From an uncultured Candidatus Saccharibacteria bacterium (GTDB taxonomy: Bacteria; Patescibacteriota; Minisyncoccia; Phycocordibacterales; GWA1-40-21), in the NCBI GenBank assembly GCA_964613715.1, contig CAZTJK010000005.1, forward strand, positions 1 to 43,161: a DNA stretch of 43,161 nt. The letters are read 5' to 3'. The first letter of the stretch is position 1. Each line of letters opens with the position of its first letter. This document shows positions 299 to 35,849 of the stretch, in pieces. Below the pieces are notes generated by a model. The model was not told the DNA's origin. It was given only the letters and a program-made list of their open reading frames with translations, and searched no databases. Position numbers and translations under genes: made by a program.

Positions 299-566
299 AA
301 AAAAACCGCCCATGAACTACTGAGCAAGTAGACAACGGACGGCGAAAGAAAATGTCTCGTGAGATTTCACTCCCTACACCTTGTGCGTTTTAAAATAAAA
401 TCTTAAAGCGGGTGAGGGAAGGAAAGCTATGAAATTTCACCAAACAAAGCTTTCAATTTTGAAGATGATCAGTCTTCGATGAAAGAACTCCTTGAAGTAT
501 GTTTAGGAGGACTGAAATAGCGAGTTGCGTTGACTATTTCTGTCTGATACTTCAATACTTTTGTCC
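299..566 (-). ncRNA. Candidate stand-alone structured noncoding RNA (~270 nt), unassigned
   Basis: TATAAT at 578-573, predicted TSS 566; helices 492-500/547-555, 514-520/534-540, 461-465/473-477, 422-428/448-454, 370-380/411-420; terminator stem 306-311/337-342 plus U7; no credible ORF on this strand. Confidence 0.55.
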
Positions 567-644
567 GATATGATTATACTCTAGATATAAAAGACAAGTA
601 AAGGACATAGTTGTTGATAACTTTAAAACTATCTAAAAGACAAT

Positions 645-689: not shown

Positions 690-1196
690 TTAATGCTTGT
701 TTTTCTGAAAACACCAGACGACTTCGGCAGAGAACCTTTGCTGTAGCCTGCTTTCGCAGGAAATGCTCGTCAGCCACTTGGTCTTGCCATTGGTCTTCAG
801 GGAAAAGATGATCGGGGTTCCTTTCATACCCTTGATCGGCTCCATCGCCATGTGCACGACTTCCTGGTCAGGCTGGTCCTGATACTCTGTCCGGAGCCAG
901 GGCCCGTGACAAGGTTTGGCAGGGGAACCATTTCTTTCTCCGATACCGCGCAGCACTTCCTCAAGGGTAGCGCTGTCCTTCTTTCCGGTCAGATCCTTCG
1001 TGGTCATGAAAGCGAGCATGACCTGCTCATCTTTTTCAGGACATTCGATCGAACCACCATCGCGATCGAAAATATCCTGGACCGCGACCCCGAACATTAC
1101 CCCTGGAGCCTTCTGAAGGGCTGTTTTTAAAGCCCGAAAGCCCCCTGGAATTTTTAGACCCATCTCCGATGGGAGTACAGCCCTAGACTGAACCAT
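690..1196 (-). CDS. Hypothetical protein, Parcubacteria-type family (GPxLRxxYxDQP...MEPI...WL...VF); possible C-type-lectin-like C-terminus
   Basis: 168-aa ORF with AAGAGG SD, TTGACA-18-TGcTATAAA promoter and its own terminator. Confidence 0.7.
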   Translation of the reverse strand: MVQSRAVLPSEMGLKIPGGFRALKTALQKAPGVMFGVAVQDIFDRDGGSIECPEKDEQVMLAFMTTKDLTGKKDSATLEEVLRGIGERNGSPAKPCHGPWLRTEYQDQPDQEVVHMAMEPIKGMKGTPIIFSLKTNGKTKWLTSISCESRLQQRFSAEVVWCFQKNKH

Positions 1197-3948: not shown

Positions 3949-4473
3949 ATGAGTGTTGTAAAACATAAAGACCAGCGCGTCGGTATTTTCATCGATACGC
4001 AAAATTTGTATCATTCCGCGAAAAATCTATACGGCGGAAAAGTGAATTTTGGACAGGTGATCAATGACGCCCTTGATGGGCGCGTGCTTATCCGCGCGAC
4101 TGCATATGTGATCACGACCGAATCAGGCGATGAGAAGGGCTTCTTCGAAGCGCTCGGCAAAGTCGGCATCACGACAAAGACGAAAAACCTCCAAATCTTC
4201 GCGGGCGGCGCTAAAAAAGCCGACTGGGACGTGGGCATGGCGATCGACGCGATCGCGCTCTCGCCGAAACTCGATGCTGTGATCCTCGTCACGGGCGATG
4301 GCGACTTCGTGCCGCTTGTCGAATACCTGAAAGTGACACAAGGCTGCCAGGTGGAATGCGTTTCCTTCGGCAAATCAACTTCCTCGAAGCTTATCGATAC
4401 TGTCGATGGATTCATGGACCTTGATGATGATCCGCAGCGATACATGATCGGCGGCGGACGCAGACGCAGATAA
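3949..4473 (+). CDS. NYN domain (LabA/DUF88) protein
   Basis: IFIDTQNLY, KADWDVGMAID, LVTGDGDFVPLV motifs. Confidence 0.92.
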   Translation: MSVVKHKDQRVGIFIDTQNLYHSAKNLYGGKVNFGQVINDALDGRVLIRATAYVITTESGDEKGFFEALGKVGITTKTKNLQIFAGGAKKADWDVGMAIDAIALSPKLDAVILVTGDGDFVPLVEYLKVTQGCQVECVSFGKSTSSKLIDTVDGFMDLDDDPQRYMIGGGRRRR

Positions 4474-4508
4474 AAAGAATAGCCGGCCCAAACGGGTCGG
4501 CTATTTTT
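4472..4508. terminator. Bidirectional terminator
   Basis: AATAGCCGGCCC-AAAC-GGGTCGGCTATT flanked by A- and T-tracts. Confidence 0.85.
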
Positions 4509-4824
4509 ATTCTTCGCAGCCTATGACCTGATACGCAAGGAACTGATTGAAAAATCGTGGCTCTACAATCATGATCCGGGCATAGAACAGCATCTCTGCA
4601 GATTCGACATCCGGCTGATGCAGCAGGAGAAACGCATCCCAATGTGCTTCTTCACGCTCCACAATGAGCGAGACATCGTCCGGAGACTGCCGCTTCATCT
4701 GCTTCACCGAGAGCATGATATGCTCGAGCAGCATATCGAAAAAATCGTTGAGTATGAGCGAGTCCGCCTTTCGTTTCGGAGCCGCGAGCGCGTAATTGCG
4801 GAAAAGTACCGCGGTATCACTCAT
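4507..4824 (-). CDS. Hypothetical ~105-aa helical protein (probable distant paralog of 4925-5236)
   Basis: AGGAG/AAAGGA SD 6 nt before ATG 4824; TTTACA-16-TGcTATCAT promoter at ~4862-4889; terminator downstream. Confidence 0.65.
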   Translation of the reverse strand: MSDTAVLFRNYALAAPKRKADSLILNDFFDMLLEHIMLSVKQMKRQSPDDVSLIVEREEAHWDAFLLLHQPDVESAEMLFYARIMIVEPRFFNQFLAYQVIGCEE

Positions 4825-5236: not shown

Positions 5237-5348
5237 GATTCACCACCTCCTTTTCTTATTGGCTGCAGCTTCTGATGTCACTTATAGTATAGAAAAAATA
5301 ACTTGTCAACAATATGAAGAATAACGGCTGCATGGTATTTTTATAGCT

Positions 5349-7472
5349 ATGAATAAAAAAGAGTTCTCTATGGAGCTCGGCGGCAAAAAGCTCACGGCCG
5401 AATTCAACGATTGGACTGAAAATGCGCATGGATCGGTCGTATTGAAATACGGTGCAACCACAATTCTCGCAACCGCGGTCATGTCCAAAGAGCGGCATAC
5501 TGGTGGGGATTTCCTTCCACTCACGGTGGATTACGAGGAAAAATTCTACGCGACGGGCCAGATACTCGGCAGCAAGTATACACGGCGGGAAGGGAAGCCG
5601 TCCGATGAGGCGATCCTTTCAGGACGCATCGTCGACCGCACCATCAGACCGCTCTTTGACCAATGGATCAGGAACGAGGTTCAGGTTGTCATCACGACGC
5701 TTTCCATCGACCAGGATGATCCGGATGTCTTGTCAGTCATCGCCGCATCACTTGCGCTTTCCATCTCGAAAATTCCATGGAACGGACCCGTGAGTGCCGT
5801 ACGCATCGGCAAGCACAAAAATGACGGATTCCAGGTGAATCCGACCTATGTCGAGCGCGAAAACGAGGCGTATGAGATTGATCTCGTCTCATGCGGCAAG
5901 GATGGCAATATCAATATGATCGAGCTCTCCGGCGATGAGGCCCAGGAAGGAACTATTATCGACGCGCTCAAGGCAGCATCAGCCGAAATCGAAAAGATAA
6001 ACGCATGGCAGAAAAATATCATCGCCGAAATCGGCATGAAAAAAATCTCGATTCCTGAAATACCCGCGCCCGAATCCGTCGTTGCGCTTTTTGCCGAGGT
6101 AATCAAACCGAAACTCGAAAGCTATGTAATGAGCGGCATGCCCGGACATGGGAAAATAGAAGAGATTACCGAGGCATGGATGCTTATCGCCAAAGAAAAG
6201 CTTCCGGTAGATGATTTTGCATTTGCAGCAGCCTATATCGAAGAGAGAATCGACGTAATGATACACGAACAGGCGATACAGCATGGGAAGCGCGCTGATG
6301 GGCGAGGACTCGACGAGCTGCGCCCGCTTTTCGCCCAGGCTGGCGGCATCTCTCCGGTGCTCCATGGATCGGGTATCTTTTACCGCGGCGGCACGCATAT
6401 TCTTTCAGTGCTGACCCTTGGCGGACCAAAAGATGCACAGGTGATCGAGGGGCTTGAACACTCCGAACCGCCGAAGCGCTTCATGCACCACTATAATTTC
6501 CCTCCATTTTCGACCGGCGAAACCGGCAGGATGGGCGGCACAAACCGCCGCATGATCGGCCATGGCGCGCTTGCCGAAAAAGCGCTTCTGCCGATGATCC
6601 CAGACATGGAGGCATTTCCGTACACGATCCGCATTGTCTCCGAAGCGCTCGCGTCAAACGGCTCAACATCCATGGGAAGTGTCTGCGGCTCGACGCTCGC
6701 ATTGCTTGATGGCGGCGTACCGCTCAAAAAACCAGTGGCCGGCATCGCAAGCGGACTTATGTCAGACGAGAAAGGGGATTATAAGATTCTCACCGATATC
6801 CAGGGGCCGGAAGATCATTTTGGCGACATGGATTTCAAAGTCGCCGGCACGCGAGATGGCATTACCGCCATACAGATGGATATCAAGGTTGGCGGCATCC
6901 CGATACCGGTGCTTGGCGAAGCCTTTGAAAAAGCGAAAGCTGCCCGATTCAAAATTCTCGATGTCATCGCAAAGACTATCGATGCTCCGCGCACCGGACT
7001 TTCGGCAAATGCCCCGAAAATCATTACCCTTAAAATCAACCCGAGGCAGATCGGCGACGTGATCGGCTCGGGCGGCAAGACGATCAAGGCGATCAAGGAA
7101 AAAACCGGCGCCGATATCGATGTCGAAGACGACGGCACGGTCTACATCACTGGTAAGAACGGTTCCTCGGAAAAAGCCAAGGAAATCATCGAGCGCATGA
7201 CACATGAATATAAGGTGGGGGAACAGTTCCAGGGCAAGGTCGTGCGAATCGAAGCATTCGGCGCATTCGTGAATATCGGCGGTGATACCGACGGCCTCGT
7301 GCACATCTCCGAAATCGCGCCATTCCGCATTGAAACGGTGACGGATTATCTCCATGTTGGCGACATCGTGCCCGTCATCGTGCGGGAAATCGACGAACGC
7401 AAGCGAATCAACCTCTCCATCAAGGCGGCGAAGCCAGACTTGTTCAAGCAAAAACCGGATACACATGCTTGA
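5349..7472 (+). CDS. pnp: Polyribonucleotide nucleotidyltransferase (PNPase)
   Basis: Two RNase PH domains (PLTVDYEEK, HYNFPPFS, RREIGHG-like RRMIGHG, SNGSTSM, GDMDFKVAG), KH and S1 domains. Confidence 0.98.
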   Translation: MNKKEFSMELGGKKLTAEFNDWTENAHGSVVLKYGATTILATAVMSKERHTGGDFLPLTVDYEEKFYATGQILGSKYTRREGKPSDEAILSGRIVDRTIRPLFDQWIRNEVQVVITTLSIDQDDPDVLSVIAASLALSISKIPWNGPVSAVRIGKHKNDGFQVNPTYVERENEAYEIDLVSCGKDGNINMIELSGDEAQEGTIIDALKAASAEIEKINAWQKNIIAEIGMKKISIPEIPAPESVVALFAEVIKPKLESYVMSGMPGHGKIEEITEAWMLIAKEKLPVDDFAFAAAYIEERIDVMIHEQAIQHGKRADGRGLDELRPLFAQAGGISPVLHGSGIFYRGGTHILSVLTLGGPKDAQVIEGLEHSEPPKRFMHHYNFPPFSTGETGRMGGTNRRMIGHGALAEKALLPMIPDMEAFPYTIRIVSEALASNGSTSMGSVCGSTLALLDGGVPLKKPVAGIASGLMSDEKGDYKILTDIQGPEDHFGDMDFKVAGTRDGITAIQMDIKVGGIPIPVLGEAFEKAKAARFKILDVIAKTIDAPRTGLSANAPKIITLKINPRQIGDVIGSGGKTIKAIKEKTGADIDVEDDGTVYITGKNGSSEKAKEIIERMTHEYKVGEQFQGKVVRIEAFGAFVNIGGDTDGLVHISEIAPFRIETVTDYLHVGDIVPVIVREIDERKRINLSIKAAKPDLFKQKPDTHA

Positions 7473-8061: not shown

Positions 8062-9138
8062 ATGGACGAGGAAAAAAATACTTCGCAAAATCCTATCGAC
8101 AACAAGCTGCGGGAAGCGGTGAGCAATGAATTGCGCGCATATACCGATACTGCGGCTGCCGATCTTATGCCGGCGAGAGCCCCTGCGCCGACTCCTGAAC
8201 CAAAAACGGCGCCAATTCCGGCGGCGCTTGCCCCACATGCTGCGCAGCCGATCGTGCGCACCTATAAGAGCGATATGGAAGAGGCGATACAGACGGGACA
8301 TCTGTCATCTATCAGCATGGCAGTGAGCGAAAATGCAAAGCTCCTGAAAAATGCCCGGCAAGGCGAAATCGAGGAAAAAAAAGCTAAAATCAATAAGAAT
8401 ATACTGATCCTGAGCATCGTCCTTGTATTCGGCGGCATGCTCGCGCTCCTAATTCCATACGTATTGACCAAGCAACAGCAAGTCGCAAAAACGCAGCCGA
8501 CGCAGACCATCTCGGTAAAAGCATTATTGACGCCGGATCTTGAAGAAAAAATAAATATCAATGCTATCGACAGCACGCGCTTCGGCGCAGCAATGAAGCA
8601 GCATATCGATCAGTCGTCAATCACGCTCGGTCAAGTCAAGAATCTGCTCGTGGTAAAAACAGGAGATACCGGAGATCAGGCAGTCAGTGCGAATGATTTT
8701 CTCGCCCTGATCCAAGCGCGGGTACCGGACGATATAGCCCGTACGCTTCGACCGGAATATATGTTCGGCGTGCATAATTTCAACGGCAATCAGGAATTCC
8801 TGATCTTGAAAGTCGGTTCCTATGACACAGCATTTTCCGGCATGCTCGCCTGGGAACAGAGCCTGTGGCAGGATTTCAGAAACCTCTTCGGCCTGCAATC
8901 AACCGCCACAAGCACCGATACCACAGCAACGGACGAGCAGAATTTCGGCATCACGATACAGAAATTCCAGGATGCGACATTCGCCAACAAGGATTGCCGG
9001 GTCGTACGGAATGCATCCGGCGCCATCGTATTCCTCTATTCGATCATCGATGAAAATACGGTGGTCATCGCGACGAGTGTTGATACGCTCAAGGAAATCA
9101 TTACGCGGCTGAATCGGGCAAAATCCGTCACGCAATAG
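8062..9138 (+). CDS. Single-pass membrane hypothetical protein (RTYKSD motif family of Parcubacteria)
   Basis: 358 aa; Pro-rich cytoplasmic N-terminus, IVRTYKSDMEEA motif, one TM (ILILSIVLVFGGMLALLIPYV), extracellular C-domain. Confidence 0.75.
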   Translation: MDEEKNTSQNPIDNKLREAVSNELRAYTDTAAADLMPARAPAPTPEPKTAPIPAALAPHAAQPIVRTYKSDMEEAIQTGHLSSISMAVSENAKLLKNARQGEIEEKKAKINKNILILSIVLVFGGMLALLIPYVLTKQQQVAKTQPTQTISVKALLTPDLEEKININAIDSTRFGAAMKQHIDQSSITLGQVKNLLVVKTGDTGDQAVSANDFLALIQARVPDDIARTLRPEYMFGVHNFNGNQEFLILKVGSYDTAFSGMLAWEQSLWQDFRNLFGLQSTATSTDTTATDEQNFGITIQKFQDATFANKDCRVVRNASGAIVFLYSIIDENTVVIATSVDTLKEIITRLNRAKSVTQ

Positions 9139-25560: not shown

Positions 25561-26190
25561 ATGGCAGTTTCAAAAGCAACACAGGACTTTGTGCCGATCA
25601 AGGAGATCCGCGACGGTATCGTCATGCTCAAAGACGGCTCGATGCGCGCCATTGTCATGGCATCATCGGTGAACTTTGCCTTGAAGTCGCCCGAGGAGCA
25701 GCAGGCGATCATTATGCAGTTTCAAAGCTTTCTGAACGCGCTTGATTTCTCGATACAGGTATCCGTGCAGTCTCGCCAGCTCGACATACGCCCATATATT
25801 TCCATGCTTGAATCAAGATATAAAGACGAGCTCGGCGACCTGATGAAGATACAGATCCGCGAATATATCCAGTTCGTCAAGAATTTCGTCAGTCAGACGA
25901 ATATCATGACGAAGACATTTTTCGTCGTCATCCCGTTCTCGCCGGCAGTCATCAGCACGCAGGATAATCCGCTCGCGACGATCATGCAGAAGCAGAAGGG
26001 AACGACAGTGAAAGCATCGGATCATTTCGAGGAAAACCGCACGCAGCTCGAACAGCGCATCAGTTCTGTTTCCCAGGGCCTCACCCGCTGCGGGATCCGG
26101 AGCGTGCAGCTCGGCACTGAAGAGATTGTCGAGCTCTTCTACAAGACCTTCAACCCAGGCGACATGGAAAAGCCGATCATGCCGGCATAA
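25561..26190 (+). CDS. Conserved T4SS-cluster protein resembling the N-terminal (non-ATPase) part of VirB4/TraC
   Basis: SKATQDFVPIKEIRDG...SSVNFALKS.EEQ.AII...FLNALDF.IQ...SR.LDI; lies between prgI and the ATPase. Confidence 0.75.
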   Translation: MAVSKATQDFVPIKEIRDGIVMLKDGSMRAIVMASSVNFALKSPEEQQAIIMQFQSFLNALDFSIQVSVQSRQLDIRPYISMLESRYKDELGDLMKIQIREYIQFVKNFVSQTNIMTKTFFVVIPFSPAVISTQDNPLATIMQKQKGTTVKASDHFEENRTQLEQRISSVSQGLTRCGIRSVQLGTEEIVELFYKTFNPGDMEKPIMPA

Positions 26191-31235: not shown

Positions 31236-31258
31236 AACCCGCCGAGAGCGGGTTTTTT
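31234..31258. terminator. Bidirectional terminator ending the T4SS-like operon and the jag operon
   Basis: AAAACCCGC-CGAGA-GCGGGTTTT. Confidence 0.8.
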
Positions 31259-31719
31259 CATGGCTTGGCAACGTATCGAATGACGATTCTTCTTTCTTTT
31301 CCTTCACCGATTGATTCCGTCTTTATCGACGACTCGCCGGAAAGCATCCCGTGCACGAGCAGCCGCTCGTATGAGGACATGGGTTCCATTTCGACATCCG
31401 ATTTCGTGTCGCGTGCCCGACCGGCCAAGAGTGCAGCCTTGATTTTCAGCTTTTCCGTCCTTCCTGAACGGTAATCATTCACGTCGATAGAGAAGAGTGG
31501 CGCTTCGAGAGCATCTTTCTGCGCGATGCGCTTCACGAGATGCGACAAAGCTTCGAATGTTTCTCCATGATCCCCGATGAGCAGGGGCTGATCCTTTGTT
31601 TTGATCACAAACACCGTGTTCTGCGTGATGGGATCAAGCGTCAATTCGACTGCGTCAAAAGATGCCCCGAGAGCGCGAAGCATGCTTTCTATGAGAGCTT
31701 TGATAGCATGTGCATCCAT
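31258..31719 (-). CDS. jag: Jag/KhpB (KH + R3H) RNA-binding protein, short form
   Basis: LLIGDHGETFEALSHL, IDVNDYR, MSSYERLLVH, TESIGEG..RRIVI; follows yidC. Confidence 0.88.
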   Translation of the reverse strand: MDAHAIKALIESMLRALGASFDAVELTLDPITQNTVFVIKTKDQPLLIGDHGETFEALSHLVKRIAQKDALEAPLFSIDVNDYRSGRTEKLKIKAALLAGRARDTKSDVEMEPMSSYERLLVHGMLSGESSIKTESIGEGKERRIVIRYVAKP

Positions 31720-31721
31720 AA

Positions 31722-32468
31722 TTATTTTGCTGCAATGGCTGACGCATGCCGCTTGACGTAGATTTCCTGGCCGATAGCGAAGAGGCTCGAGGTGATGAGA
31801 TAGAGCGATACGACGGCAGGGAAGCTGCGTCCGATAAAGAAAATGACGACCGGCATGAAATATTTCATCTGCATGCTCATGCTGCGGGAAAGCTCGTCGC
31901 CGAATGTCGGCGCCGCGCCGGGCGCCAAGGATTTTTTCGGCTGTTTTGGCATGATGACCTGCATCTGGAAAAATTGCGCGATCGCGGCGCCGAGCGCGAA
32001 TATAATGCTTTTCCCAGCAACACTTGCACCGAACAAGGTGATGTTGATCACGTCCGGTATGCGGGTAAATGAGTAGAGGGCAGTGTGATCGAGATTTGGC
32101 AATCCGCTCTTTGAAAAGATCATATAGAGCGCCAAGAGCACCGGAAGCTGGATGAACATGACGAGGATTCCGGCAAATGGATTGATGCCGCGCTCGCGAT
32201 AGAGCTCCATGGTCTTTTCTGCCTGCAGTTGCTTATTGTCCTTATAGGCAGATTTTAAGGCATTGAGCTCCGGCTCGAGGCGCTTCATCTCGAATTGCGT
32301 CCTGACCGCCTTCTGAGACAGGGGGAAGAGAAGTATCTTGATGATGAGGGTAAAGAGTATGACAGCAACCCCGACATTGTGGAATGGGATGATGCTGATA
32401 AAAAAGATAAGGCCGTTGTAGAGCGGCGCATAGAAAAAGGTAGTAAAGATATAGTGCATACCCCTCAT
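31722..32468 (-). CDS. yidC: Membrane insertase YidC/Oxa1 (short form, no periplasmic domain)
   Basis: GVAVILFTLIIKILLFPL, MELYRERGINPF, IQLPVLLALY, LYLITSSLF; start may be 32459. Confidence 0.95.
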   Translation of the reverse strand: MRGMHYIFTTFFYAPLYNGLIFFISIIPFHNVGVAVILFTLIIKILLFPLSQKAVRTQFEMKRLEPELNALKSAYKDNKQLQAEKTMELYRERGINPFAGILVMFIQLPVLLALYMIFSKSGLPNLDHTALYSFTRIPDVINITLFGASVAGKSIIFALGAAIAQFFQMQVIMPKQPKKSLAPGAAPTFGDELSRSMSMQMKYFMPVVIFFIGRSFPAVVSLYLITSSLFAIGQEIYVKRHASAIAAK

Positions 32469-32497: not shown

Positions 32498-32848
32498 CTA
32501 TTTTTTCTTCAAAAACCCAATAGTTTCAAGGATATTTCTGATATTTTCTTCAAGGAGACGATAGGAGGCCGATGGTTCCTGCGGTTGGGCGAAAAAGACA
32601 ATGGTAAAGGAGGGCTGGGATGCCTCTAAAGAAGTATATTTTTCAATAGCGGCACTCATCTGCCGCTTGAGCCGGTGCCTGCCAACCGATGTTTTTTGAG
32701 CTTTTTTTGATACTACAACAGCAAAATGGGAGTGTGGGGAGCTCGCGGAAGCATATTTTGCATAGACAAGCCGGCCCGGCGCGGTCCTGCCGTTTTTGAT
32801 TGTGCTCGTGATATCGATTCGCGATGCTCGGTACTCTTTTTTCAGCAT
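32498..32848 (-). CDS. rnpA: RNase P protein component
   Basis: FAVVVSKK...VGRHRLKRQM (RNR-motif variant); position between rpmH and yidC. Confidence 0.88.
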   Translation of the reverse strand: MLKKEYRASRIDITSTIKNGRTAPGRLVYAKYASASSPHSHFAVVVSKKAQKTSVGRHRLKRQMSAAIEKYTSLEASQPSFTIVFFAQPQEPSASYRLLEENIRNILETIGFLKKK

Positions 32849-32911
32849 GGTTTCGTATAGTATACCCTGGAAACAAACAAAATATCCGCTTGCGGCGGAT
32901 ATAGTGGGGAT

Positions 32912-33046
32912 TTAGACGGTGAGCTTGGCGCGGCCCTTCTGTCGTCTGCGCTTGATGGTATTTCTGCCATATTTGCTCGAGCTGCGGACCAAAAATCCGT
33001 GCGTTTTCGCTCGTTTCCGCTTATTCGGCTTGTATGTGAATGACAT
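32912..33046 (-). CDS. rpmH: 50S ribosomal protein L34
   Basis: [21 protein letters not shown]...RRQKGRAKL (44 aa). Confidence 0.97.
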
Positions 33047-33146
33047 GCGGAGAGCATACATCAGAAACAAAAAAATGTAAAGTTCTTTTGCTCGGCATTT
33101 CCGGCATAATGAGAGGGTATCGGCGCATGAAATATTCCTTTGTTTC

Positions 33147-33178
33147 TTATCCACTTTTTGTGCACAGATTGTGAACAA
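33147..33178. promoter_or_regulatory. DnaA-box cluster upstream of dnaA
   Basis: TTATCCACT (33147-55), TTGTGCACA (33158-66), TGTGAACAA (33170-78), each one mismatch from TTWTNCACA. Confidence 0.7.
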
Positions 33179-33224
33179 AAAAATTCATTCGCGCCCGAAC
33201 ATCAGCATACTATAATTGAGCGAC

Positions 33225-34559
33225 ATGGTTGAACATAAAACATTGTGGAATAACGTCCTCTCGCAGATCGAGCTTGCTATCTCGAAAGCGAATTTCGGCA
33301 TGTGGTTCAAAGACACCCATATTACCAAGCAGGAAGACGGCGTAGTCTTCGTGGGCGTGCCAAATATCTTCGTGAAAGACTGGCTGTCGAACAAATATCA
33401 CAAGGATATCATGAAGCAGCTGCGCACCTTTGGAGAAAATATCCGCAATGTCGAATACGTGGTGGCGAAAATCGAGGCGAAAGCACCGGTGAAAGAGGCA
33501 CCAGTAAATGTAAACGAATTGCCGCTCGCCGATTTCTATGTCAACAAGGAGGACAATCTTAATCCACGCTATACGTTCAAGACATTCGTTGTCGGACCGT
33601 TCAACGAGCTCGCGCATGCGGCTTCCCAGGCGATCCTGAAGCGCACCGCAACCTATAATCCGCTCTTTATTTTCGGTTCCACCGGCCATGGCAAGACACA
33701 TCTGATCCAAGCGCTTGGCAATCAGGTCAAGGAAGACGATCCGTCGAAAAAGATCTATTATATGACCTCGGAGCGCTTTGCGAACGACTATCTCAACTCG
33801 CTCAACAGCGGCGAAATCAATATTTTCAAGGAAAAATACAAGAAATACGATGTTTTGATCATTGATGATATCCAGTTCCTTTCCGCAAAGACGAAGACGC
33901 AGGAGGAATTCTTTCATCTGTTCAATAGTTTCCATGATGTCGGCAAGCAGCTTATCTTTTCTTCGGACAAGCACCCGAATTTCATCGCCGATCTCGAAGA
34001 GCGTATCAAATCCCGCTTCAATGCGGGCATGATTCTCGAGATCCAAAAGCCTGATTTCGAATCCCGCATCCAGATTTTCAGGAAAAAAGCCCTCTTGATG
34101 AACCTGGCGCTCTCCGATGAGATGGTGGAATTCCTCGCATCGTCCGTCGAAGGGAATATTCGCGAGCTTGAGGGAATCCTCAACCTCATTCTCTGCCAAT
34201 CCCAACTGAAAAATAGGGAATTGAATATCAATGAGATCAAAGACTTGATCAAGAACACCTCGAAGCCGAAAAAGAGTCTGTCAGTGAAGGATGTGACGCG
34301 TGTTGTATCAGAGTTTTACGGCATTGAAGAATCAAGTATCTTTGAGAAGGGCCGTAAAAAGGAAGTGATTCTGCCCCGACAGGTTATTATGTACCTTCTT
34401 CGGGAGGATTTTGGCATCTCATTTCCGTCGATCGGGGATAAGGTAGGTAATAGGGATCATTCAACGGTTATTCACTCCTACGAGAAGATTAAAAATGACT
34501 TGAAAAGTAATTCAGAACTCACCCAGGAAATAAGCCACATACGCTCGATGTTGAAATGA
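33225..34559 (+). CDS. dnaA: Chromosomal replication initiator DnaA
   Basis: LNPRYTF..FVVG..N, YNPLFIFG.TGHGKTHL, LIIDDIQFL, EEFFHLFN, NIRELEG, RDHSTVIH; ATG 33225 is 8 nt after TATAAT. Confidence 0.98.
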   Translation: MVEHKTLWNNVLSQIELAISKANFGMWFKDTHITKQEDGVVFVGVPNIFVKDWLSNKYHKDIMKQLRTFGENIRNVEYVVAKIEAKAPVKEAPVNVNELPLADFYVNKEDNLNPRYTFKTFVVGPFNELAHAASQAILKRTATYNPLFIFGSTGHGKTHLIQALGNQVKEDDPSKKIYYMTSERFANDYLNSLNSGEINIFKEKYKKYDVLIIDDIQFLSAKTKTQEEFFHLFNSFHDVGKQLIFSSDKHPNFIADLEERIKSRFNAGMILEIQKPDFESRIQIFRKKALLMNLALSDEMVEFLASSVEGNIRELEGILNLILCQSQLKNRELNINEIKDLIKNTSKPKKSLSVKDVTRVVSEFYGIEESSIFEKGRKKEVILPRQVIMYLLREDFGISFPSIGDKVGNRDHSTVIHSYEKIKNDLKSNSELTQEISHIRSMLK

Positions 34560-34748
34560 TTGTGGAAAAGCTTGGGAAAAGATATGGAGAAAATTATACA
34601 CAATATGTTGAAACTGTATGGATAAAAATGAAACGATGTATTGTAGACATATTGTCCAGTCAGAAAAAGCTTTGAAATTGAAAAATAAACAGGAATAATA
34701 AGAATAAAAATAGATTCACATATCAACAAGGATAATAAAAATATTAGT
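34560..34748. other. Probable oriC (dnaA-dnaN intergenic)
   Basis: Perfect boxes TGTGGAAAA (34561-69) and TTATACACA (34594-602), near-match TATGGATAA (34617-25), followed by a very A-rich tract (AATAATAAGAATAAAAATAG). Confidence 0.8.
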
Positions 34749-35849
34749 ATGAAAATAGAGTGTGTAAAAGAAAAACTCCATATCGCCGTATCAAATGCTG
34801 AAAAGATTGTGACTAAGAACAACACTCTTCCAGTACTATCCTGTATTTTGTTTGAAGCAAAAAACAATACCCTTACTATCCAATCAACAAACATAGACCT
34901 TGGTTTTGAGGTATCCATCCCAGTAAAGATGAAGGAACAAGGAAAAGTAGCAGTTCCAGCCCATATCATCGGTTCTTTTTTAAACACTATTACCGATGAT
35001 GAAAGTATCAATCTCGAAACCAATGAACAGACCCTCCATATATCGACAAAAAATCACAAAGCGACCATAAAAACCATCTCATATGATGATTTTCCAACTA
35101 TACCAACGATCGATGGTGGCGCTACATTCACACTTTCAGCCCAGGATATGCGCAATGGCATCAAATCAGTGCTGTATAGTGCCGCAGTTTCTTCAGTAAA
35201 ACCTGAATTGGCAAGCGTCTACCTGTATTCGAATGAAGAGTCGATTATTTTCGTCGCAACAGACTCTTTCCGTCTTGCCGAGAAGCGCATACAAACAAAG
35301 AAACCGCTGAAAATAAGCGGCATTCTCATTCCATTCAAGAATGCGACGGATATCCTGAAAATCATAGATTCAGTCGCCGGAGATATCACGATTCATACAA
35401 CAAAAAACCAGATATCATTCGTATTCGCCGAAACATACCTCGTTTCCCGCGTGATCGACGGCACATTTCCCGACTACAAACAGATTCTCCCGAAGGAGGA
35501 GAAAACGAAAGTAACTATCCTGAAGCAGGATCTTCTCAGTACACTCAAGATATCGAACATTTTTTCCGACAGTTTCAACCAGATGAATATTGCAGCGATG
35601 CCCGGAGCAAAGACCATCGAGGTGAAGACAAAAAATGCCAATGTGGGCGAGAGCACCAATACGATCAGTGCTCGCGTTGAGGGGGAGACAATCGCCGTCA
35701 ATTTTAACTACCGCTACATTACCGACTCCTTGCAATCCATCGCTTCCGATAGCATCACCCTTTCATTCAATGGCACGACGAAGCCCCTGGTGATTCGCGG
35801 TAGCGCGGACTCAAGCTTTACCTACCTGGTCATGCCGATGAACCGATAA
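34749..35849 (+). CDS. dnaN: DNA polymerase III beta sliding clamp
   Basis: TLPVLSCIL, STNIDLG, ATDSFRLAE, IDGTFPDY, FNYRYI, YLVMPMN. Confidence 0.97.
   Translation: MKIECVKEKLHIAVSNAEKIVTKNNTLPVLSCILFEAKNNTLTIQSTNIDLGFEVSIPVKMKEQGKVAVPAHIIGSFLNTITDDESINLETNEQTLHISTKNHKATIKTISYDDFPTIPTIDGGATFTLSAQDMRNGIKSVLYSAAVSSVKPELASVYLYSNEESIIFVATDSFRLAEKRIQTKKPLKISGILIPFKNATDILKIIDSVAGDITIHTTKNQISFVFAETYLVSRVIDGTFPDYKQILPKEEKTKVTILKQDLLSTLKISNIFSDSFNQMNIAAMPGAKTIEVKTKNANVGESTNTISARVEGETIAVNFNYRYITDSLQSIASDSITLSFNGTTKPLVIRGSADSSFTYLVMPMNR

Follow-up and report, generated by a model that had tools for sequence, protein, structure and literature searches.

A putative structured non-coding RNA family of Paceibacteria with a DnaA-box promoter

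Introduction

Few regulators are known from the uncultured Paceibacteria and other CPR bacteria, whose genomes measure roughly 0.5-1 Mb. In Rfam 15 and in the literature searched, no non-coding RNA beyond the universal RNAs has been described for Paceibacteria or CPR. Among described RNAs, the closest to the one analysed here, RNA A, are raiA, OLE, ROOL, and GOLLD, which share with it independent transcription (predicted in the case of RNA A), clade-wide occurrence, covarying helices combined with invariant unpaired nucleotides, and an obscure function. OLE, ROOL, and GOLLD form homo-oligomers, and natural homo-oligomers of bacterial RNA are thus documented (PMC12286853), whereas self-pairing of RNA A is only suggested, by a self-complementary loop. 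RNA A differs from all four in showing no similarity of sequence or structure to them (all Rfam 15 models were negative), in its smaller size (185-510 nt), in its restriction to Paceibacteria as far as seen, and in its DnaA-box promoter.

CsrB and RsmZ sequester CsrA, and 6S RNA sequesters RNA polymerase. Like RNA A, they are stand-alone genes with their own promoter and terminator, and a short single-stranded word, often duplicated, is placed among their hairpins. In RNA A, however, the word is GUUCUUU and not the GGA of CsrB/RsmZ, it is present in 1-3 copies rather than many, and the rod and central bubble of the 6S type are missing. Dimerisation by kissing loops is known from the HIV-1 DIS and from the RNA I/RNA II loops of ColE1. 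Here the likeness consists of a 7-nt apical loop with a 6-nt sequence that stays self-complementary through two-sided changes (UGAUCA, UAGCUA, UGGCCA). In contrast to the HIV-1 DIS, RNA A is a bacterial chromosomal non-coding RNA, its loop has one flanking unpaired base in place of purine flanks, and its dimer is a prediction.

The window in this study is the whole stretch of 43,161 nucleotides; all coordinates refer to it, and all features of RNA A lie on the minus strand. RNA A appears to be the window's member of an undescribed family of structured non-coding RNAs in Paceibacteria, predicted to be independently transcribed, which may act in trans as a dimerising scaffold or decoy linked to DnaA; the probability of this reading is put at about 0.55.

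Promoter and transcription unit

A consensus scan of the minus strand found the sigma-70-type promoter TTTACT-18-TATAAT at 602-573 with 10 of 12 matches, as a previous interpretation made from the letters of the window alone (the sequence-only reading) had claimed, as well as a terminator stem that ends at 306 and is followed by T7. The predicted transcript of RNA A (300-566, 267 nt) begins at G566, a start site inferred from the position of the -10 hexamer and from a conserved GGA start, and it ends within U7 (305-299). Since the 168-aa ORF upstream (690-1196, minus strand) ends in its own terminator at 680-650, the region of RNA A constitutes a separate transcription unit.

A DnaA-box-like site, TTATCAACA, is located at 612-620, 9 nt upstream of the -35 hexamer. 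It matches TTATCCACA in 8 of 9 positions, with the single mismatch within the CACA core. Among the six relatives recovered via the RNA body alone, the box is TTATCCACA (9/9) in L203, L206, L208, L210, and L214 and TTATCAACA in L215, and its position is unchanged; a box in five of six exact and in a fixed place is what would be expected of a DnaA-regulated promoter. Three direct repeats of TGTCYTTTA (634-642, 599-607, and 588-596) span 588-642, and the middle repeat supplies the -35 hexamer. TGTCYTTTA has five matches in the window against 1.1 expected, and three of the five belong to this promoter block. The exact word GTCCTTTAC has a single occurrence in the 43-kb window and, as a rule, one in each 20-kb locus; therefore, it is not a general promoter word.

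Within the family, the promoter block is near-invariant, with the DnaA box TTATCCACA followed by TGTCCTTTAC (-35) and TATAAT, and a TTTACA-16/17-TATAAT-like promoter is found in 58 extracted loci. The recurring order of the unit is GTTATCCACA, a short spacer, ATGTCCTTTACATGTCTTTTA, TATAAT, 185-510 nt of non-coding sequence, and a terminator, and AAGTTATC[C/A]ACA-N4-5-TGTCCTTTAC is located upstream in each of the relatives recovered via the RNA body. The promoter is the best-conserved part of the unit, above the RNA body, and it combines the DnaA box with TGTCYTTTA/TAAAGGACA repeats in direct and inverted orientation. Around the start site, many copies (573-566 in the window; also L203, L116, L111, L149, and L060) contain TAAAGGACA, which is the inverted form of the -35 word TGTCCTTTA, and the promoter is therefore bracketed by an inverted repeat.

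The block is also present at other sites. In L041, L063, and L072, a DnaA box and AAAGGACA repeats adjoin parS/yraN without the RNA, and in L088 a DnaA box with the GTCCTTTAC block lies upstream of a CDS that starts near 220 and that we take, from its N-terminal sequence, to be gyrB. These occurrences suggest control by DnaA together with a second factor. Since the block stands before the apparent gyrB and at three loci without the RNA, the TGTCYTTTA/TAAAGGACA word looks like the site of a putative DNA-binding factor of Paceibacteria.

Secondary structure of RNA A

The 274-nt minus-strand transcript folds with -76.4 kcal/mol (z = -4.6), and none of 200 shuffles was equally stable. The plus strand folds nearly as well (z = -4.3); therefore, the folding energy of the window sequence alone cannot choose the strand. 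The strand is set by the orientation of promoter and terminator, by the strand bias of GUUCUUU, by G-U pairs, and by the z-scores of the relatives. The G-U pairs, which had already been taken to favour the minus strand, amount to 28 cells within the 3'-domain alignment, and in all ten full-length relatives the forward z (-1.9 to -6.0) is more negative than the reverse.

Relatives were gathered by nhmmer with the RNA body and from contigs with close xth homologues (74-82% identity). The set of close relatives contains eleven sequences: the window, L134, L159, L003, L103 (cut by the contig end), L203, L206, L208, L210, L214, and L215, the last six being those recovered via the RNA body alone. 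Their individual minimum-energy folds all recover one common layout, and the architecture shared by the eleven comprises P0 enclosing P1, CUCC, GUUCUUUC, P2, a long 3' hairpin, and a terminator with an inner hairpin.

The 5' domain (492-555) consists of P0 (UUGAAGUAU/AUACUUCAA, 555-547/500-492) around P1 (GAC-GAAAUAG/CUAUUUC-GUC, 544-534/520-510), both of which are conserved. The GCAAC in the P1 loop (528-524) and the single-stranded CUCC on the 3' side of P1 (509-506) are invariant, and the pyrimidine hallmark word GUUCUUUC (481-488) lies between P0 and P2. In the 5' alignment of model R2, 63.3% was paired compared with 58.5% in shuffles, in an alignment that kept register errors of the MAFFT seed. 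Because of these register errors and the marginal statistics, it was replaced by folding of each sequence with the three conserved words held unpaired, with segment shuffles as the null. By this motif-constrained folding, 11 of 11 relatives adopt the topology of P0 around P1, with a P1 of 10-13 bp and a P0 of 6-22 bp; both lengths were reached by no more than 1 of the 200 segment shuffles of any sequence and by 3 of 2200 overall. The 5' stems themselves differ in sequence, P0 being CAAUUGGA/UCUAGUUG in L134, AAGUGU/ACACUU in L206, and UAAAGUGU/ACACUUUA in L210. The nested helix of the sequence-only reading is borne out by these results, and so is its GAAGA/UCUUC hairpin, which corresponds to the conserved P2 (GAAGA-CUGAUCA-UCUUC, 461-477, strands 477-473/465-461) with the self-complementary loop sequence UGAUCA at 471-466.

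The long 3' hairpin (344-454) was analysed with covariance model R1, by which the eleven sequences were re-aligned (alignment A2), and the same hairpin is found in the minimum-energy fold of each relative. It is closed in all relatives by the helix GAAAG/CUUUC (454-450/348-344) and contains P3 (446-437/362-353), P3b (435-429/370-364), and the apical P4 (UCCCUCACC/GGUGUAGGGA, 419-411/380-371). In this domain, 80.2% is paired compared with 71.2% in shuffles, 17 pairs are changed on both sides compared with 9.3, and the covariation score is 0.293 compared with 0.169, none of 500 shuffles being as high in any of the three; partners that were slid gave scores of 0.08-0.14. The two outer helices are 93-94% paired, and the inner helices, including P4, score lower (61-76% in the model-fitted alignment) because the alignment is imperfect there. 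P4, proposed earlier as a UUCCCU-CACC hairpin, is found in every relative's own fold but is less well paired in the alignment. Another proposed hairpin, GAAAGCU/AGCUUUC, can be formed in the window but is unsupported, because it is not conserved and would break the closure in which GAAAG pairs with the distal CUUUC in all relatives.

The intrinsic terminator (299-342) is formed by P5 (CCGUCC 342-337/GGGCGG 311-306) and U7 (305-299), and P5 encloses P6 (CUACU/AGUAG, 331-327/321-317, loop UGCUC). P5 around P6 is predicted in all ten full-length relatives, with GCUCA at or in the P6 loop in nine of them, and the terminator with its inner hairpin thus agrees with the earlier proposal. Overall, compensatory changes preserve the helices, a few single-stranded words stay invariant, and the search for homologues that the sequence-only reading had recommended has yielded relatives with such changes. 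It is very likely that RNA A is a real, conserved, structured RNA.

The P2 loop deserves separate mention. In two related subfamilies, a 4-nt palindrome is present in 17 of 17 P2 loops and a 6-nt palindrome in 14 of 17, compared with 14% and 4% in the other 4-8-nt loops of the same RNAs; a scan of the whole family based on minimum-energy folds found palindromic loops in these two subfamilies only. The cores are UGAUCA in seven RNAs, UGAUCG in L134, UAGCUA in four, UGGCCA in three (L010, L144, and L004), and GGCC in two (L103 and L203), so that three core types (GAUC, AGCU, and GGCC) stand on differing stems. A change from UGAUCA to UAGCUA or UGGCCA needs paired changes that keep self-complementarity, and this retention of the palindrome despite sequence change is as expected of a kissing-loop RNA. 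A loop of 5-7 nt is unable to pair the positions of a palindrome within itself. Since the stems covary, a DNA-binding site is disfavoured as the explanation of the palindrome. The simplest reading would be the pairing of two RNA copies, which we infer at somewhat less than even odds.

Occurrence and gene context

BLASTN and nhmmer searches against 80 xth loci revealed a single unit that recurs in many species immediately after the repair gene xth, and the conserved block also follows xth in species-representative genomes. A metagenome scan with the promoter pattern matched at least 120 rows, and at least 62 distinct RNAs of 185-510 nt (267 nt in the window) were extracted from Paceibacteria (CPR) genomes and metagenome contigs. 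RNA A can thus no longer be called an orphan, as it had been. The other part of that description, an unannotated small RNA or larger non-coding RNA class of CPR bacteria, is supported by the Patescibacteria context, the negative Rfam results, and the compensatory changes; the best matches of the window xth (56-72% identity) are almost all from Patescibacteria/Paceibacteria MAGs. Models R1 and R2 detected no other subfamilies, apart from a weak, non-significant match in L004 (E = 0.11) that lies inside the RNA of that locus. Because R2 missed the other subfamilies, the family is tied together by promoter, synteny, motif, and layout and not by one covariance model.

The word GUUCUUU (GTTCTTT in DNA), which is absent from the pattern used for locus selection, is present in 42 of 62 RNAs against 1.9 expected from shuffles (about 20-fold enriched) and in one on the reverse strand. 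Outside the window subfamily, GTTCTTT is the top non-trivial 7-mer (33 of 51 RNAs). It is often duplicated, and in unconstrained minimum-energy folds it is unpaired in 46% compared with an average of 40%, a slight excess. The conserved words are therefore of two ranges: GUUCUUU belongs to the whole family, and GCAAC and CUCC are invariant in the window subfamily.

In the window, RNA A is accompanied by xth (ExoIII, 1284-2054), a PLDc_N protein gene, an xerC-like gene, rpsO, an NYN-domain gene, and pnp, and 2 nt separate the end of its terminator from the stop codon of UPF0102/yraN, which is convergent. The order S15-xerC-(PLDc_N)-xth-RNA-yraN (convergent)-cca is retained among close relatives. 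Among the matches listed, 31 loci picked by the promoter pattern without reference to xth have enough upstream sequence; 25 of them have a same-strand xth no more than 1.5 kb upstream, its end typically some 80 nt from the predicted RNA start. The RNA has the opposite orientation to xth in L208 and L214, and the xth-homologue contigs L212, L216, L218, and L219 carry no RNA copy beside xth. Downstream of the RNA, many genomes have cca or some other gene, or yraN at a distance of 2-4 kb on the same strand. The convergence on yraN/parS that had been noted earlier therefore applies to the window and its close relatives, but the conserved neighbour is the upstream xth. Three parS-like sites (TGTTTCACGTGAAACA with 1-3 mismatches; plus strand, 66-81, 90-105, and 192-207, with 0.12 expected by chance) sit inside the yraN/UPF0102 CDS of the window, and similar sites flank yraN in related loci.

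The 168-aa ORF has no homologue among 5.8 billion proteins, and xth was therefore used as the synteny handle. The ORF is confined to the contig of the window, which recurs in the runs SRR12313477 and SRR12313478; none of the relatives has the ORF between xth and the RNA, and a recent insertion is therefore probable. An SD-like AAGAGG, together with its own terminator, sets the ORF apart from its neighbours.

The likely oriC region of the window (32498-35849) contains rnpA (32498-32848), dnaA (33216-34559), and dnaN (34749-35849), with yidC (31722-32468) and jag/KhpB (31258-31719) just upstream of rnpA. Three DnaA-box-like sites are clustered at 34561-34625 in the low-GC spacer between dnaA and dnaN. 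From dnaA, dnaN, and this cluster it follows that RNA A is about 34 kb from the likely oriC, and an oriC-resident RNA was accordingly rejected.

Alternative explanations

At gathering score, no Rfam 15 family matches the window, so that the covariance-model check proposed earlier has returned no known family. With E<=10 there was no match on RNA A within 1-1400 of the window, the weak matches being outside the RNA or on the plus strand, and the 296-nt interval gave, on the RNA strand, a single chance match to engA (11.7 bits versus a gathering score of 46). At the homologous position of 20 related loci no family was found either, and the Rfam searches as a whole returned tRNAs and chance matches only. 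BLASTN against phage records gave no match. The placement of a riboswitch or leader is not seen: the terminator is followed by convergent yraN (in the window and close relatives) or convergent cca, and because the downstream genes are convergent RNA A is not a cis-leader. The conserved words GUUCUUU, CUCC, and GCAAC do not resemble the many GGA loop motifs of a Csr/Rsm sponge.

The alternative that survives best is a base-pairing sRNA, in which CCUCC and GUUCUUUC would serve as seeds and repress translation by pairing with purine-rich, SD-like mRNA regions. In its favour, the conserved unpaired words are pyrimidine-rich, GUCCUCCU resembles the anti-SD core, and a stand-alone unit with promoter and terminator would suit such an RNA. 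However, most genes of the window have no SD and show a TATAAT-like box 6-12 nt before the start codon (e.g. 1284-2054, 8062-9138, 25561-26190, and 32498-32848). Because of this box, the window genes appear to be expressed mostly from leaderless mRNAs, which makes a role in SD pairing unlikely. Besides, the GAAAGAAC sites of the window are not at gene starts, and the many conserved loops and covarying helices exceed what a seed and a terminator need. This explanation is regarded as rather improbable.

It is much less likely that the unit is a DNA element, that is, an origin-proximal array of sites for DnaA and another factor near parS, whose transcript is incidental. Such an array would fit the higher conservation of the promoter block compared with the RNA body, and also the occurrence of its motifs without the RNA near parS/yraN (L041, L063, and L072) and upstream of the apparent gyrB (L088). 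However, DNA-binding sites do not covary as these helices do, GUUCUUU is strand-specific (42 versus 1), the terminator is always present, and the DnaA-box cluster of the likely oriC is some 34 kb distant, in the spacer between dnaA and dnaN. Regulation of yraN in cis, by an antisense or convergent RNA that acts through read-through, is hardly more convincing. The 2-nt distance from the terminator to the yraN stop codon and the convergence kept in close relatives speak for it, but in many genomes cca or another gene lies downstream, or yraN is 2-4 kb off on the same strand; the terminator with its U7 is strong, and convergence alone leaves the conserved internal structure unexplained.

Finally, RNA A could be a highly diverged universal RNA (RNase P RNA, 6S, SRP, or tmRNA) that escapes the covariance models. 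Bacterial RNase P RNA has a P4 helix made from conserved regions I and V and a GAGGAAAGUCC-type word; neither P4 long-range pairing nor such a word was seen in the 11 aligned relatives. 6S RNA is rod-like, its 5' and 3' ends pairing around a large central bubble. RNA A forms no rod and has no 5'-3' closing stem, since in all relatives four separate domains (5' domain, P2, 3' hairpin, and terminator) fold locally. tmRNA combines a tRNA-like acceptor/T-arm domain with a tag reading frame, and SRP RNA carries the domain IV motif. ARAGORN found no tRNA or tmRNA, the 3' end of RNA A is an intrinsic terminator and not tRNA-like, and none of the RNase P, 6S, SRP, and tmRNA models matched at E<=10, nor did the homologous position in the 20 related loci give a hit; the hallmarks of tmRNA, RNase P, SRP, and tRNA are thus missing, as judged by eye before. 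A length range of 185-510 nt with just one 7-nt universal word is also unlike those RNAs. On the other hand, the window encodes RnpA at 32498-32848, therefore an RNase P RNA must exist in the genome, and none is found in the window. Divergent RNase P RNA is reported in some CPR genomes; Lui et al. needed lowered score thresholds to detect it in 10 of 35 complete CPR genomes (PMC8172020). RNase P RNA, including these diverged forms (PMC8172020), resembles RNA A in being a structured RNA of a few hundred nt that is missed by standard annotation, but RNA A has no P4 or conserved-region signatures, gives no model match at the thresholds tried, and differs in length and hallmark word. Overall, a diverged universal RNA is highly improbable. 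A small-protein gene, for which a 28-aa TTG ORF at 469-555 (minus strand) might speak, can practically be dismissed, since no ORF is conserved in position or peptide among the 11 relatives (in L203, forward ORFs of >=15 aa are absent altogether), substitutions track base-pairing rather than codons, and the earlier statement that no usable ORF exists is confirmed.

Proposed function

The preferred reading is that RNA A would act in trans as a scaffold or decoy, its exposed pyrimidine-rich words binding a single-strand-specific partner. A cold-shock-domain, S1, or KH-type protein would be a likelier partner than an mRNA. Bacillus subtilis CspB prefers 5'-GTCTTTG/T-3' (PMC1904285); likewise, GTCTTTT occurs twice in the repeats of the RNA A promoter block, and GUUCUUU contains the UCUUU core of the CspB consensus. 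The likeness to CspB ligands (PMC1904285) is one of short words, and a scan of about 2 Mb of CPR loci, which are small parts of the genomes, revealed no cold-shock gene. Because the words resemble the CspB ligand and SD pairing is unlikely, a protein-binding scaffold or decoy is favoured, although as a function in its own right the scaffold is put forward tentatively, with perhaps one chance in three.

In addition, a kissing-loop dimer may form between two RNA copies by way of the palindromic P2 loop. DnaA and a putative TGTCYTTTA-binding factor may set transcription, by which the level of the RNA would be tied to replication status; judging from the promoter sequence, control of RNA A synthesis by DnaA is plausible but less than even. 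A bolder version, in which a class-wide regulatory RNA of Paceibacteria is controlled by DnaA, is at least dimeric via P2, and sequesters a single-strand-binding factor through GUUCUUU and CUCC, is considered unlikely. If it were true, it would provide an RNA-based link from replication status to the control of RNA and translation in bacteria with few regulators and largely leaderless mRNAs.

A class-wide structured RNA with a DnaA box and the best-conserved promoter of its neighbourhood offers a testable handle on regulation in CPR bacteria, and with its self-complementary P2 loop this RNA, about 270 nt long, is a candidate natural self-assembling RNA. Furthermore, the 'empty' spacer of 300-500 nt after xth in hundreds of MAGs would be a gene, by which a gap in annotation is filled. 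A second non-coding unit without a match in Rfam was observed beside the RNA A homologue in L208 (about 5290-5650) and L214 (about 4290-4650); it consists of TTGACA-17-TATAAT, about 300 nt with GTTCTTT, and a terminator.
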